This document shows positions 857 to 14,750 of a DNA stretch of 64,000 bases, in pieces. The position numbers and the translations under genes are program-made. Position 1 is the stretch's first letter. Each line of letters begins with the position of its first letter. Origin of the DNA: Haliotis rufescens (taxonomy: Eukaryota); contig NW_025963813.1 in assembly GCF_023055435.1 (NCBI RefSeq), positions 21,266,001 through 21,330,000 on the forward strand, written 5' to 3'. Below the pieces are notes generated by a model. That model worked only from the letters and a program-made list of their open reading frames with translations. It made no database searches and was not told where the DNA came from.

Positions 857-978
857 AGTAGTATAGACAATGACAGTTCTGGACCACTTCCACCACAGCC
901 AGATTTATATACCTATACTGCTACTACAGAGGGATTTTTTTATGTCAATATGATTATGCGATTCCACGATCGTCATGA
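857..978 (+). repeat. Left terminal inverted repeat of the Polinton
   Basis: Matches the reverse complement of 14666-14750 apart from 37 extra bp (888-924) and a few substitutions. Begins with the (AGT)2 motif typical of protein-primed termini. Confidence 0.93.
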
Positions 979-1012
979 TTCATATTAAAAGAATAATCAA
1001 TATTAATTAATA

Positions 1013-2108
1013 ATGGATAACATTTACTATAGCCCATGAGGATATTGGAAAGGTATAGGAGCAATACAAAAATTACCCACTACGGCTAAGGTATCTTAAC
1101 ATGTGGCCAAGGATTGGCTAAAGAAACAAGCGAAGTGGCAAATATACTTACCGGCACCGCGTTATATCCCGAGGAAGAAGTTTGATATTAGTACAACGAA
1201 TGAAGTTCATCAGGCTGACCTCTTGTTTCTTCCCCACGATAAGGTAAGACGCAAAACGTATAAATATGCTTTAACTGTAGTGGATGTGGCTAGTCGGTTT
1301 AAAGAGGCTGAGCCATTAACCTCATTAGCTAATGCACTGAGCCGCATATATAAACGCGGACCACTAATTGGCCTAAGTTTTTTTCAAGTTGATCGACGTC
1401 GTGAGTTTATGGGATCAGTAACTAAACTGTTAACAAAGCACGATGTCGCAATCAGGCGTGGTGAAAAAGAGGCCCACTGTAGTCAAGCTATCGTTAAAAG
1501 ATTTAACGGGACATTAGTGGAACGTTTGTTTGGCTATAAGTATGGGATTGAAATGAAATCGGAACGTCACGGGTGACACGATTATCAGCTGTTGCTGAAT
1601 AATGAAGTAACAAGATTAATCGGGAAGAAACCATCCGATGCGATTAAAATGAAGTCTGTGACTTCCGAATCTTCAGCACTGAGGAGAGGCAAAGAACAAA
1701 AACTTCCGGATAAAGTAAGCGCGTAAGATATTTATACCAGCCCGCGGAACTTGAAGGAGGTCTATGTCGCGCAACCGATCCGATTTGGTCTCTTAGGATA
1801 TATAACATTAGTCGGTTGGTTATGAAAGAAGGAGAGCCTATTCTTTATTATCTTAAAGATGGACCGGGCAGGGCATTTGTACGAGAAGAGTTGCTCATAG
1901 TGAGTGAGTGACTATAGTTTTACGCCGCTTTTAGCAATATTCCAGCAATATCACGGCGGGTGACACCACAAATCGGCTTCACACATTGTACCCATGTCGG
2001 GAATCGAACCCGGGTCTTCGGCATGACGAGCGAACGCTTTAACCACTAGGCTACCTGACCGCCCCAGAGTTGCTCATAGTTCCAAACGATACAGTATTAC
2101 CACCATAA
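1013..2108 (+). pseudogene. Polinton retroviral-like (rve, DDE) integrase, disrupted
   Basis: ATG at 1013 is in frame with ORF 1103-1576 through two stops (MDNIYYSP*GYWKG...). Core motifs HQADLLFL, YALTVVDVASRF, QVD..REF, SQAIVKRFNGTL. The frameshifted C-terminus (RATDPIWS...YYLKDGPGRAFVREELLIV) resumes after the SINE as PNDTVLPP* (stop 2106-2108). Confidence 0.9.
1902..2065 (-). mobile_element. tRNA-derived SINE (family A) inserted in the integrase 3' end
   Basis: Minus strand: GGGGCGGTCAGGTAGCCTAGTGG (A box) ... GGTTCGATTCC (B box) ... (ACTC)n tail. Perfect 15-bp TSD AGAGTTGCTCATAGT (1887-1901, 2066-2080). Confidence 0.93.
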
Positions 2109-5100
2109 CCATAAGCATAGGTAGTTACACCATCATTATCAATCCATCTCTTTGTATCTAATGGGGACAATGATGTCTTGTTCATCCTTAATCCATATAT
2201 CCTGTGATTTACATTTCTTAAAGAATTCATCTCGTGTTTGAATGTTCTACCATTGAATAATGCTTCTTTATACTGTTCGTGTTTGATATGCTTTTTTACC
2301 ACATACTTCTTAACACCCTTAGCTTCCTTATCTCCCCATTATCGGACTTCTTTATAGAATACATCTTAGGTCTTAATCCAACATACTCTGCTATAGCGGT
2401 CCCAGCATATTCATCCTTCATCTTACCTAACACCTTTTTATTTACTACGCTGTGCAGTTGATTATATTTTGGGTAATCGCTCATGTCGTACATATCTATT
2501 TTTTCTGCCATATCTTTATACATTTCCTCGGTTTGTATTTCCATCAACAAAGAATCTGTGTCGGTATATAACACCTCACACCTATCACTGTACTGCTTCC
2601 TAAGTTCGTTGTAATAAAAGTCATACATTAAGTGTTTTGACAAGTCAAGAATACTCATACCAACGTACACCGGTTTGTTGAAATTTATATTACTCTTCCG
2701 CATATGTAGTGCCACTAAGTCGTTATCAAATATCTTGCTTCTGTTAAAAGCCGGACTGGCTATAAGTTTCCTGAGTCTTTCTTCCTCATTAGATCTGACC
2801 AATTTAACATCAACACGCTTCCTTAGATTCTCCATAGTTTTACCAAATACTGAGTTTTTCATGAGCTTATATAAGTTCTTTTCGAAATCGCTGGTAGCTA
2901 TCTTTCTTAAATCTGTGTTCAGTTCTATATAGGGCTCCATCCAAGGGCTTTGATCAAACTTAAGAACTCTGTGTATTTTCTTTAGTTTCATGCCTAACGA
3001 TAGATATATAGAGGTTATCACGCGAGTGTGTTTGTGGATGGTAAATATCCTGCATTAGGAATAAACATTGTATTTAGCGAGCCTAATACAGGATATTTAC
3101 CATCCCCAAACACACAAGCGTGATAACCTCTTTATCATATAATGTCATTCTTTAATTCTGTGCTTGAGAATCGCTTTCCCTCTCTCACAAACATTACCGA
3201 AACATTGCGAGTTTTCCTGGAATGCGCGCATTAATATTTATTACGTCACAGGGTAAGTGATGTGTCAGTCGGACAATGGCAGTAGCCAATATAGTTCCAA
3301 CTGAAATCTGTTTCTTATAAATCTTATACAGTGGCGAAGCAACATATACGCAAAACAACAATTGTTTTTAATTGCCTTTCGTGGCAATCCATCCGTCTGT
3401 CAGCTAGAGTAACTGCCCTTTGTCAAAGGGAAGCTACTCTAACCCTAGTCTATGAGACGTCACGGCCACGGTCAGACGTTGTTGACAGTCGGTCTGTCCT
3501 GTCATAACGTTCAGAAGTGTAGTCAGATGTTCACACAGCGACAAAACGAAACAAGGTAACGATTCAAACATATTTCGGCCAAATCCAACTATTTTAATTT
3601 GTGGGGAAGGTTTCAAGCCGCAGAGGTGAACAAGCACAGATATGGCTACTGATCCCGCTTGGCTAGGCCTCGTGCCCTCGCAAAATTGTGTCGAAATTTA
3701 TATCTCCAAAGTTGCCAAAACTTATAAAATGCCTTAGCTACGTCACAGTTAGACACTGATTTTCAGTGTATTAGACTGTTCTTTTGATAATGATAGCAAT
3801 TATCCCTGTAGTTTATCCAGATTTCCGATGGTTAATTCTGACTCGATCGCCGAATGACGAGGGCGACGCCATGTTTGTTTATAAACAGTGAAAGTAGTCC
3901 CTACTTGACCTTTGATATTTGCATCTCTATCCGCATATGACCCCAACGGATATCGTTTTTATCCGTTGGCTTTATCCTGCCGAGAAACCTACCCATTATA
4001 TGATAAAACACGAGATTTTTATAGTGAACTATATATTTTGTCTTATCCATCAAATTTGGTACGAGTATTTCTATGTTAGCTAACCTAGTATTGCCCATCA
4101 AGGAGTGTTGATATTCTGACATCCAATCCTTATTAACCATTAATCTTTCCGGAGCTAGTGGATAACTGTTATGATCTTTGTGTAACTCTGTTGGCTATTT
4201 CAAGTCAACTTCTAATATGTATCCTTTATTGGAATCTGTGGGGATATCATTCACATCGATCCACTCAAAACCACCCATGGGTAAAGGTTGACTCATAGCC
4301 CATCCATACAAATTGTTGAAGTCGAGATATAATATGTGCGTATCGGGTTTCGGATCATATCCTTCCACTAATTTATTATTAGCCTTTAAAAACCTTTTCG
4401 CCAACATCGATATACCACCTCTTAATCCTTTCTCAATAAACAAGTGCATATGAGTACTACAGTGAGTAGTTTTAGTTCTACACAGGTCTTCTTTAACAAT
4501 GCATCCCACAACAGTCCGGGACCGGAATAGTACCATGCCAGATCAAAGCCGTATTGTTTTAAACATGTCCTTCGAAATATCTCAAATATATCGGTGAGTA
4601 ACAGTACATGATAATTGCCTAAATTCTTTCAACCTAATTTATCCCACACTGTCAGAGTGTGTTCATAATCGGCATCAGTTATTTTAGATTCTGTAAAGTT
4701 ACTATAGAATGATTCAAGGGGTGGTAATTGAGTTTCATCAAATCTGGACCAATCATCCATATATTCGTAAGGATATACACCTTTTCCCAACAACAAATGA
4801 CGAGTTAACCGATCAGTTATTGATTTGTTATTGCAAAGTCATCGGGATTGTTGGCATAAGCCAAATTGTCCAGGGCAGATAACAAAAACTGTATGGAAAC
4901 GATGAATCTAAGCCCATTACTTTGCTTTATTCTAGCTTTCCCATCCTTGTCCGTATAATGTATAGTTTATTCAACGAGAATGATACGTATTTTTTCATAT
5001 TATTAGGAATGCACGTTAAGCCGGCGTCTGTCTTTGAGATAGCTTGCATAATGAGATGAGAATCATATCCTCTAAGGTTATGAAACACAACGGGGACGGG

Positions 5101-14364: not shown

Positions 14365-14426
14365 TTGGAGATTAAAAATAGATTGTTTGATCACATTTAA
14401 ACAAATGCTTACATAGGTATATAATA

Positions 14427-14663
14427 ATGAAGCCAATCAAATGGAGAGAATTACCACAGGGTATATATTATATCAGTGATGTCAAACCAACCAAATACGG
14501 TCATCAATTGTGTCTTTCAAATTTCGAAAAAGAGAATATAGTCTGGTCTCCTAGTAAAATGAATGAAGAACTTAGTAAAAATGTTGAATATCACTTTGTT
14601 CAAAATAATGTAATGCTTATGAGCAAAAATAATAGAGAATATTTTCATTACAATTTAGTATAA
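14427..14663 (+). CDS. Small (78 aa) beta-rich Polinton protein, possibly OB-fold or ssDNA-binding; intact
   Basis: Complete ORF ending 2 bp before the right TIR. IKWRELPQGIYYI...TKYG...VWSP pattern. The fold is a guess. Confidence 0.6.
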   Translation: MKPIKWRELPQGIYYISDVKPTKYGHQLCLSNFEKENIVWSPSKMNEELSKNVEYHFVQNNVMLMSKNNREYFHYNLV

Positions 14664-14665
14664 TC

Positions 14666-14750
14666 TCATGACGATCGTCGAATCACATCATCATTTTGAC
14701 ATGAAAAAATCCCTCTGTAGTGGTCCAGAACTGTCATTGTCTATACTACT
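14666..14750 (-). repeat. Right terminal inverted repeat of the Polinton
   Basis: Reverse complement reads AGTAGTATAGACAATGACAGTTCTGGACCACTACAGAGGGATTTTTTCATGTCAAAATGATGATGTGATTCGACGATCGTCATGA, matching the left end. Confidence 0.93.

Follow-up and report, generated by a model that had tools for sequence, protein, structure and literature searches.

A broken integrated copy of a polinton-type virus without an adenain gene in the abalone Haliotis rufescens

Does an integrated polinton-type element of Haliotis rufescens belong to a virus lineage that dispenses with the adenain maturation protease and, if so, what kind of virion does such a lineage build? The question is raised by positions 857..14750 of a stretch of 64,000 nucleotides (the window; contig NW_025963813.1), which an initial annotation described as the complete genome of a protease-less, possibly lipid-containing virus. 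This element is a broken integrated copy of a polinton-type DNA virus of marine invertebrates. With a probability of about 0.72, it is a dead copy, carried in the germ line, of a linear dsDNA virus that integrates and that combines polinton replication and integration functions with a PLV-type capsid module related to those of Polinton-3_NV and PgVV.

The ends are those of a polinton/Maverick mobile element, i.e. (AGT)2-ended TIRs bordered by a TSD:

852..856, no strand: left TSD copy, GTTTG, 5 bp
857..978, + strand: left TIR with an AGTAGT end and a 37-nt extra stretch at 886-922
14666..14750, - strand: right TIR with an ACTACT end
14751..14755, no strand: right TSD copy, GTTTG

The two arms pair in a block of 32 nt (857-888/14719-14750, complementarity 100%) and a block of 56 nt (923-978/14666-14721, 91%) and match at 80 of 85 positions after setting aside the 37-nt extra of the left arm. 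The GTTTG duplication has a chance probability of about 0.001; its 5 bp fall within the reported range of 5–8 bp, vs 6 bp in vertebrate Mavericks. Both TIRs and the TSD were thus correctly recognized at first reading, as was the almost gapless tiling of the interior, then estimated at about 14 genes: about 15 are found, mapped features account for 96.7% of the element and no unassigned gap exceeds 161 bp. The word complete holds for the ends but not for the interior. Indeed, most accessory genes and the core genes for integrase, pPolB, ATPase and MCP contain stops or frameshifts, a SINE and a ~1-kb repeat have been inserted, and the penton gene is truncated. The element has decayed through point mutation, the nesting of two host repeats and an internal deletion.

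Two annotated relatives were found by motif searches of the supplement of Buck et al. 2024 (PMC11071296), and all comparisons with them were made by eye. MeldLC027333 ('refMeld_haliotis862_abalone', GenBank LC027333) displays long stretches identical to the window and carries, in the same order, Integrase, PolB/Endoseven/Otu, a Cys-rich ORF, Fus, a Lardeb-like ORF, Ayleven, PacK, Hexon, Cah, Titinmem, Penton, Glycot and Slatt. It differs by a whole penton gene and two Glycot genes, lists neither Nispumem nor a counterpart of the ORF at 14427-14663, and contrasts with the window copy, which carries two nested repeats. The more distant Meld6842 (Meldvirus sus6842, BK066732, 13,310 bp) shares Hexon, PacK, Penton, Cah, Titinmem, Slatt, Glycot, Fus, Ayleven, Lardeb, Nispumem and Integrase; its integrase is listed between PacK and Fus and its PolB is labelled 'PolBa'. 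The window carries the Fus-Ayleven-PacK-Hexon-Cah-Titinmem-Penton-Glycot-Slatt set of this lineage, as judged from gene order and sequences. Buck et al. file both relatives as 'Meld', not as 'Adinto' (PMC11071296). The element is a member of a lineage that is on record but uncharacterised: the invertebrate virus group announced as poorly characterised is indeed little studied, but it is not novel, as it has annotated genomes.

The left half of the element encodes the replication and integration functions:

1013..2105, + strand: RVE integrase pseudogene with stops, frameshifts and a SINE in its last codons (by-eye match to MeldLC027333_Integrase)
1899..2065, - strand: tRNA-derived SINE of the host, lying within the integrase 3' end
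2105..6745, - strand: protein-primed PolB (pPolB) pseudogene in many pieces, limits approximate
3008..4007, no strand: ~1-kb host repeat in pPolB, with a long hairpin at one end
5750..6019, - strand: vOTU-type cysteine protease domain of pPolB (Cys codon 6019, His codon 5752)
6763..7008, - strand: small Cys-rich ORF that is also kept by the abalone relative (by eye)

The pPolB plus RVE integrase pair of polintons/Mavericks is thus present as two pseudogenes, recognized by weak Pfam matches and by-eye likeness to a relative. The integrase matches Pfam rve with an E of 0.007, under the curated cut-off. It has no room for the C-terminal chromodomain that characterises adintovirus integrases, since it ends soon after the SINE site, as in LC027333, and the Chromo domain gives no Pfam match. 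The SINE includes an Rfam tRNA match (1989-2060), is flanked by a 15-bp duplication at 1887 and 2066, and has other copies in the window at 17854, 22313 and 34223. The pPolB comprises N-terminal Rho_N-like repeats (Pfam Rho_N, E 7e-8), a vOTU domain, an endonuclease VII-like insert (Endonuclease_7, E 0.011) and the polymerase (DNA_pol_B_2, E 0.004, below the curated cut-off), and matches Otu, Endoseven and PolB of LC027333 by eye. The ~1-kb repeat, whose hairpin spans 3006-3135, has a 92% copy at 37281-38298. The vOTU domain gave no Pfam match and no significant PDB sequence match; by eye, its Cys and His motifs are also found in LC027333_Otu and its Cys motif in the locus L001, so that the N-terminal OTU domain of adintovirus PolB appears to be present. 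The vOTU family is described in PMC11161782, where the release of the terminal protein is put forward as a hypothesis.

The capsid and packaging genes lie further right:

8905..9506, - strand: A32/FtsK-like packaging ATPase pseudogene with a stop within Walker A and frameshifts (match to L001)
9499..10765, - strand: MCP (884 homologues, the best 120 of 884 at 59-65% identity)
13064..13410, + strand: probable penton, N-terminal half only (by-eye match)
13440..13745, + strand: 3' remnant resembling the 'Glycot2' gene of the relative (by-eye frame comparison), not protease-like

Capsid_N of Pfam matched 57 of the 62 rows of the MCP alignment (best E 4.5e-5) and Pox_A32 matched the ATPase below its curated cut-off (E 0.036); the DJR MCP and A32 ATPase of polintons/Mavericks are therefore both found. 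Pfam thus agrees with the initial annotation on integrase, pPolB, ATPase and MCP, weakly for the first three. The MCP homologues include a 90%-identity cluster (n=679) on megabase contigs; a PDB sequence search returned nothing significant for the MCP, and a phage collection gave no match for MCP or Titinmem. The order MCP-ATPase-Ayleven-polB of L001 is that of the window. A GTDB scan gave 33 pattern matches and one locus, a degraded 4.6-kb fragment too short for a gene-content test. The penton piece resembles by eye residues 1 to ~110 of MeldLC027333_Penton (about 217 residues) and has no HMM match in Pfam or PHROG. The probable penton noted earlier, truncated to its N-terminal half, thus remains probable, by its likeness to a gene annotated as Penton. 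A deletion at about 13410-13440 took its 3' half and left the Glycot2-like remnant. A full-length homologue search for relatives of the remnant (13491-13742) gave one candidate and none was scored, and the Glycot identity therefore comes from by-eye comparison.

Adenain was found nowhere in the element, and its largest unassigned gap (161 bp) is too small to house one. A six-frame Pfam scan of the whole element was too insensitive (only Rho_N passed) and was repeated on 33 pieces; neither gave a match to Peptidase_C5 or C48, the sensitivity for adenain being without a positive control. A scan for the HW and Q..CG motifs gave 10 and 9 matches, respectively, scattered over stop-bearing frames and none in a credible gene. 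The name Adenain is used 398 times in the Buck et al. file and is given to none of the 16 named proteins of LC027333 and none of the 13 of Meld6842. As neither annotated relative lists one, its absence is supported as a trait of the lineage rather than an accident of the window copy, on the basis of two near-complete relatives, of which LC027333 is itself partly broken. The proposed adenain-less lineage thus gains support, and the two relatives list no adenain that would contradict it. The wider statement that there is no cysteine protease holds for adenain but not for pPolB, which carries the vOTU-type Cys...His pair (6019, 5752).

Such an absence has precedents. Animal polintons without the protease already appear in a table of 2014, in which 7 of 72 had MCP and ATPase without it (PMC4028283), and PLV capsid modules lack it as a rule. 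Polinton-3_NV from Nematostella vectensis (Krupovic et al. 2014, PMC4028283) likewise has MCP and ATPase without protease; it is distant, and no penton was found there in 2014. Its MCP resembles that of the window along the full length, at roughly 30% identity, both likeness and figure being by eye. Furthermore, the MCP of PgVV forms a clade with Nematostella polintons, and in two 2026 preprints elements from Nematostella, octocorals, hydrozoans and bivalves fall outside the Maverick-Polinton clade. This by-eye likeness to the protease-less, PgVV-grouped Polinton-3_NV leads us to propose a polinton module joined to a PLV-type capsid module. Canonical Maverick-Polintons and adintoviruses share with the element pPolB with OTU, RVE integrase, A32 ATPase, DJR MCP, the probable penton and (AGT)2-ended TIRs. 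Unlike them, it lacks the integrase chromodomain and the adenain (vUlp1) protease of adintoviruses and Polintoviricetes sensu stricto, it carries other accessory genes, and its MCP apparently belongs to another clade. Like the PgVV-group PLVs (Aquintoviricetes), it has a module of MCP, probable penton and ATPase without maturation protease, but PLVs mostly lack the pPolB plus RVE pair that it carries and infect protists. Five motifs had no match in the first 4 million characters of the PMC8502044 supplement.

A life cycle can be proposed for this virus. The RVE integrase would act at the AGTAGT ends and insert the genome with the 5-bp duplication still visible as the TSD. The pPolB would copy the excised linear DNA and its vOTU domain, whose motif is present, might release the terminal protein, following the hypothesis of PMC11161782. 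MCP and penton would form a shell filled by the A32 ATPase, the usual roles of these gene families. Adenain, absent from the element and two relatives, would be dispensable because a capsid module of the PLV kind would mature without it. Between MCP and penton, two large genes would encode virion proteins, Titinmem being anchored in a membrane by its C-terminus and Cah forming a coiled coil with a membrane-inserting tip for entry. The small hydrophobic genes next to the ATPase may act in the assembly of membranes or in packaging, and egress may be the task of the holin-like and SLATT genes.

The remaining genes include those with membrane segments (names of Buck et al. in quotation marks):

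7170..7604, - strand: 'Fus', a coiled stretch flanked by two hydrophobic segments, with one in-frame stop
7672..7911, - strand: 'Nispumem'-like small hydrophobic protein, weakly holin-like (PHROG holin E 0.003; by eye)
7917..8245, - strand: 'Lardeb'-like protein of low complexity that contains a single hydrophobic segment; gene broken (by eye)
8145..8875, - strand: 'Ayleven'-like conserved gene with a hydrophobic N-terminal segment, frameshifted (52% identity to L001; by eye)
10778..11962, + strand: 'Cah', small N-domain, long coiled coil, hydrophobic hairpin and amphipathic C-terminal helices, two in-frame stops
11937..13027, - strand: 'Titinmem', helical globular protein with a Pro-rich linker and a C-terminal membrane anchor, frameshifted near 12470
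13762..14364, + strand: SLATT-like two-TM protein ('Slatt'), one in-frame stop (by eye vs relative)
14427..14663, + strand: small ORF in neither relative's gene list, no Pfam or PHROG match

At least six genes had been credited with TM or amphipathic segments. With a threshold of 1.8 in a 19-aa Kyte-Doolittle (KD) window, four of the six pass (7170-7604, 10778-11962, 11937-13027, 13762-14364), two are borderline (7672-7911 at 1.71 and 7917-8245 at 1.72), and a seventh gene has such a segment, at 8693-8875 (KD 2.06). As a control, none of 120 MCP homologues passes, the window's own MCP piece reaching 1.76. The membrane-segment genes are kept in both relatives and in hundreds of homologues; a Fus motif is common to LC027333 and Meld6842, and Slatt falls, at 0.94, with Mollusca and Preplasmiviricota clusters of the Atlas. 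That the name Ayleven alludes to poxvirus A11 was a guess: Pfam gave no match and no gene key was found.

Cah has 901 homologues, with 1–3 hydrophobic segments in all 120 examined, and 14 contig sizes are common to the MCP and Cah match lists (120 each). The predicted model of a natural homologue (pLDDT 73) retrieved generic helical bundles only (best Z 11.3, rmsd 3.0, 120 aligned) and one BFVD match (E 9e-4, TM 0.14); IpaB/SipB and ClyA, at Z about 10, were tied with unrelated bundles and are not evidence. Titinmem has 651 relatives at 50% clustering. Its C-terminus reaches KD 1.8 in 24 of 53 full-length homologues, most others lying at 1.4–1.8. Neither Cah nor Titinmem has a fold match to any fusogen or virion membrane/entry protein. 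Nematode Mavericks (Widen et al.; Jeong et al. 2023) are animal polintons for which a membrane-bearing virion was proposed; they keep the protease and encode a fusogen, whereas the element shows no fusogen fold match.

From these sequences, an internal lipid membrane is possible, at rather less than even odds. Equally plausible would be a naked capsid, a particle without lipid in which the hydrophobic proteins are membrane-lytic core proteins similar to adenovirus protein VI together with non-structural egress or abortive-infection pores. Indeed, three classes of membrane-active proteins are already found in adintoviruses (PMC8502044). Polisuviruses commonly carry holin-like and SLATT proteins, which are read as egress or defence genes, and the element combines a PHROG holin-like match with the lack of any match to a glycoprotein-type fusogen fold. 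However, Titinmem, with a folded domain of 360 residues and a terminal anchor, encoded between MCP and penton, suits a membrane-to-capsid linker more than a pore, and seven hydrophobic genes probably exceed the needs of lysis. It is unlikely that the lineage is instead a hyperparasite or helper-dependent, of the PgVV/Gezel type, borrowing maturation or membrane assembly from a large DNA virus that co-infects the host or from a polinton of the same genome that encodes a protease: the by-eye kinship with the Polinton-3_NV/PgVV capsid group and the virophage-like lifestyle of PgVV point that way, but the element has its own polymerase, integrase and packaging genes and no helper was seen.

Titinmem could also be an unrecognised Cys-His protease of new fold replacing adenain, which appears very improbable. 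Its N-half gives an Atlas papain-family lead (Peptidase_C1 clusters at 0.86-0.88, 110/256 features), and the aligned rows keep Gln81 (103/105), Cys88 (94/105), Cys93 (101/105) and His115 (104/106). However, the Atlas score remains below 0.9 and the recognition (1992) below the threshold of 2300, and the 106 members have no Pfam protease match. In papain and adenain, the Cys stands at the start of a helix and the His on a strand. In the mostly helical model of a natural homologue (pLDDT 90.7), all four residues are in helices, with Cys88 at the C-terminal end of one and the His in mid-helix, an arrangement therefore unlike that of these proteases. The whole 429-residue model has no match at E <= 0.001 in PDB and BFVD, this absence not being proof of a new fold; the fold search (best VIA Z 3.6, rmsd 3.1, 72 aligned) includes no protease among the matches listed and a PDB sequence search gave nothing significant. 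Neither this protein nor the remnant at 13440-13745 appears to supply a cysteine protease among the hypothetical ORFs. Finally, the reading as an ordinary Maverick/adintovirus that lost its protease gene through a deletion in the window copy (e.g. at 13500-13760) is largely refuted and hardly credible: the copy is heavily decayed and has a deletion at about 13410-13440, but the same interval of the syntenic LC027333 holds the penton 3' half and two Glycot genes with no protease, the Glycot2-like 3' end is still readable by eye, and Meld6842 likewise lists no adenain.

The reading as a polinton-type virus with a PLV-type capsid module matters more for the lineage, represented by hundreds of capsid homologues, than for the window copy, which is a fossil. 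Surveys baited with adenain, as in PMC8502044, would miss this lineage. No paper describing its gene set or virion was found in a literature largely without subscription journals, and the main text of Buck et al. contains no match for '6842', 'abalone' or 'haliotis', the two relatives being unmentioned there (PMC11071296). Tentatively, the lineage may be an abundant, as yet unnamed group of animal viruses that integrate and that form an animal branch of the PLV capsid lineage, with a PRD1-like, lipid-containing, protease-independent virion bearing Titinmem as a membrane-anchored capsid protein of unmatched fold and Cah as a coiled-coil, membrane-inserting entry protein; an internal membrane would then be on record for the first time in a polinton-type animal virus. 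If the membrane reading is true, the lineage would offer one confidently modelled protein of no known fold and a testable model for the assembly and cell entry of a small animal DJR virus that goes through no proteolytic maturation.

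The terminal structures of the polinton-type provirus at 857-14750 are genuine. Inverted repeats bound the element (32 nt at 100% and 56 nt at 91% identity), a 5-bp duplication, GTTTG, lies on either side of it, and its termini read AGTAGT at the start and ACTACT at the end, the motif that PMC8097293 reports for the ends of Mavericks. The arms of the terminal inverted repeats (TIRs) agree at 80 of 85 positions when a 37-nt extra at 886-922, which is present in the left TIR, missing from the right one and makes the arms asymmetric, is set aside. The complete genome described by the initial annotation is, however, a decayed copy: the integrase, the protein-primed DNA polymerase (pPolB), the ATPase and the major capsid protein (MCP) carry stops or frameshifts, and the penton breaks off half way through. 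A tRNA-derived SINE, flanked by a 15-bp duplication of its own, interrupts the last codons of the integrase, and pPolB is interrupted by a 1-kb non-coding repeat (3008-4007) that bears a hairpin of 54-58 nt at one of its ends and has a 92% identical copy at 37281-38298. No second copy of the element was found within the 64-kb window, and its flanks resemble animal DNA rich in repeats, with minisatellites and SINEs. The SINE family ends in a (TCAC)n tail and several of its copies lie within or adjoin minisatellite arrays, among which an array of a 15-mer extends over 5.8 kb. Repeats and a frame noted in the window are as follows.

1899-2065: SINE in the integrase; copies at 17854-17986, 22313-22479 and 34223-34387, partial copy at 39342-39410 (89-94% alike)
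21449-22309, 23330-25104, 27990-29418, 31343-37163, 53822-54114, 57144-59555: large minisatellite arrays (periods 32, 67, 46, 15, 25)
51704-52258: inverted arms of 81 nt, 393 nt apart, 90% complementary, a possible MITE
56141-56704, minus strand: 187-aa frame, which we take to resemble the linker region of LINE ORF2

In integration and replication, the element is polinton-like. When 33 pieces of it were searched against Pfam, only Rho_N exceeded the cut-off (E 7e-8); the integrase (rve, E 0.007), pPolB (DNA_pol_B_2, E 0.004), an Endonuclease_7 match within pPolB (E 0.011) and the ATPase (Pox_A32, E 0.036) all remained under it. At its N-terminus (6482-6658, minus strand), pPolB has a pair of Rho_N/SAP-like helical repeats whose DNA is 79% alike; MeldLC027333, an annotated abalone relative, has three. 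These repeats possibly form a DNA-binding extension ahead of the terminal-protein domain. The polymerase also carries an inserted module.

5125-5238, minus strand: Endonuclease VII-like zinc module inserted in pPolB, also present in MeldLC027333

Motif searches of the supplement of Buck et al. 2024 (PMC11071296) led to two annotated genomes. MeldLC027333 has 16 listed proteins in the same order as in the window: Integrase, PolB, Endoseven, Otu, a Cys-rich ORF, Fus, a hypothetical protein, Ayleven, PacK, Hexon, Cah, Titinmem, Penton, Glycot2, Glycot1 and Slatt. For Meld6842 (BK066732, 13,310 bp), 13 proteins are listed, drawn from the MeldLC027333 set with Lardeb and Nispumem in addition. According to the same supplement, its authors assembled Meld6842 from RNA-seq of pig muscle cells (8x coverage). 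This source is odd, as the lineage has otherwise turned up in marine invertebrates, and is likely a contamination. All that a GTDB scan recovered was a degraded 4.6-kb fragment whose genes keep the local order of the window; this GC-rich relative (JAADDH010000017.1, 1-4602) lies inside an archaeal MAG (Ca. Iainarchaeum). Some MCP matches bear Ca. Thiodiazotropha names; both they and the archaeal fragment are probably DNA of eukaryotic hosts that ended up in prokaryotic bins.

The absence of adenain, proposed initially, is borne out. Neither the six frames nor the 33 pieces gave a Peptidase_C5 or C48 match in Pfam, a search run without positive control, and the largest gap in the feature map is at most 161 bp. 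An adenain gene measures about 550 bp. Adenain, a name that occurs 398 times in the Buck et al. supplement against 468 for Hexon, is in neither of the two protein lists given there, so the absence of the protease is not local to this copy. The suspected internal deletion is real, but comparison by eye with the abalone relative indicates that it removed penton and Glycot sequence rather than a protease, because the penton tracks its abalone counterpart over about 110 residues and then ends, and 13440-13745 resembles the 3' end of Glycot2. A database search with this remnant found no match. An intact small ORF adjoining the right TIR (14427-14663, plus strand) has no family match and no counterpart listed for either annotated relative.

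A broader claim that no cysteine protease is encoded would not hold, since pPolB includes a vOTU domain, a cysteine protease of another kind (Cys at 6019, His at 5752 by sequence). This domain, proposed in PMC11161782 to release the terminal protein, is not a capsid maturase. Titinmem (13027-11937, minus strand) is the sole hypothetical protein with enough length and suitable residues for a protease, and its N-terminal half gave a weak papain lead in Atlas (0.88). In its family, Gln81 (103/105 aligned rows), Cys88 (94/105), Cys93 (101/105) and His115 (104/106) are conserved. The predicted model of a natural intact homologue (pLDDT 90.7, pTM 0.84) folds into a largely helical domain joined by a linker to a C-terminal helix, and places all four residues in helices, an ill fit to papain geometry. 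This model had no Foldseek or VIA match, a result that is no proof of a new fold and does not exclude a family.

The simplest reading would be that a polinton replication and integration module was joined to a capsid module of the type of polinton-like viruses (PLVs), hence without protease. By eye, the MCP resembles over its length that of Polinton-3_NV of Nematostella vectensis (Fig. S3, PMC4028283). This polinton is among the 7/72 with MCP and ATPase and without protease in Table S1 of the same work (Krupovic et al. 2014), which also places the PgVV MCP in one clade with Nematostella polintons. PLVs without protease are described in PMC4642659, and two 2026 preprints place Nematostella polinton MCPs outside the Maverick-Polinton clade and some octocoral, hydrozoan and bivalve ATPases nearest to Aquintoviruses. 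The N-terminal half of the MCP has 884 homologues among 1233 candidates (59-65% identity for the best 120 of the 884), and Capsid_N was found in 57 of 62 alignment rows. Those with a name trace to Elysia marginata or to contigs that lie in MAGs of lucinid symbionts and that we take to be host DNA.

The abundance of hydrophobic genes was also seen correctly, if not for every gene: four of the six named initially pass a hydropathy threshold that none of 120 MCP homologues passes, two are borderline; a further hydrophobic segment, the seventh, is found at 8693-8875. Of 8000 candidates scored, 901 are homologues of Cah (10778-11962, plus strand), and each of the 120 inspected has one to three hydrophobic segments. 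The model of Cah, whose C-terminal part is uncertain (pLDDT 73, pTM 0.43), predicts a small N-terminal domain, a long coiled coil, a hydrophobic hairpin and amphipathic helices; fold searches returned generic helical matches only. Titinmem has 651 relatives, and among the 53 full-length ones in the 150 listed, 24 have a C-terminus with Kyte-Doolittle hydropathy of at least 1.8. The ORF at 13762-14364 (plus strand), labelled Slatt in both annotated relatives in the Buck et al. supplement, resembles unnamed mollusc and Preplasmiviricota clusters.

Membrane-active genes as such are not unusual for the supergroup: three classes are described in adintoviruses (PMC8502044), a fusogen in nematode Mavericks (10.1101/2023.08.22.554363), and holin-like and SLATT genes are common. 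What is distinctive here is how many such genes there are and that two large ones lie between MCP and penton. The phage PRD1 has an internal membrane. A similar membrane in this virion is plausible, at somewhat less than even odds (about 0.4), and a naked capsid whose virus uses the membrane-active proteins for lysis and egress is about as likely.

Filing the element as an adintovirus is unwarranted, because neither adenain nor an integrase chromodomain was found when tested for. The element adds a new member to a lineage on record yet uncharacterised: protease-less animal polintons, two close relatives among them, had already been recorded.
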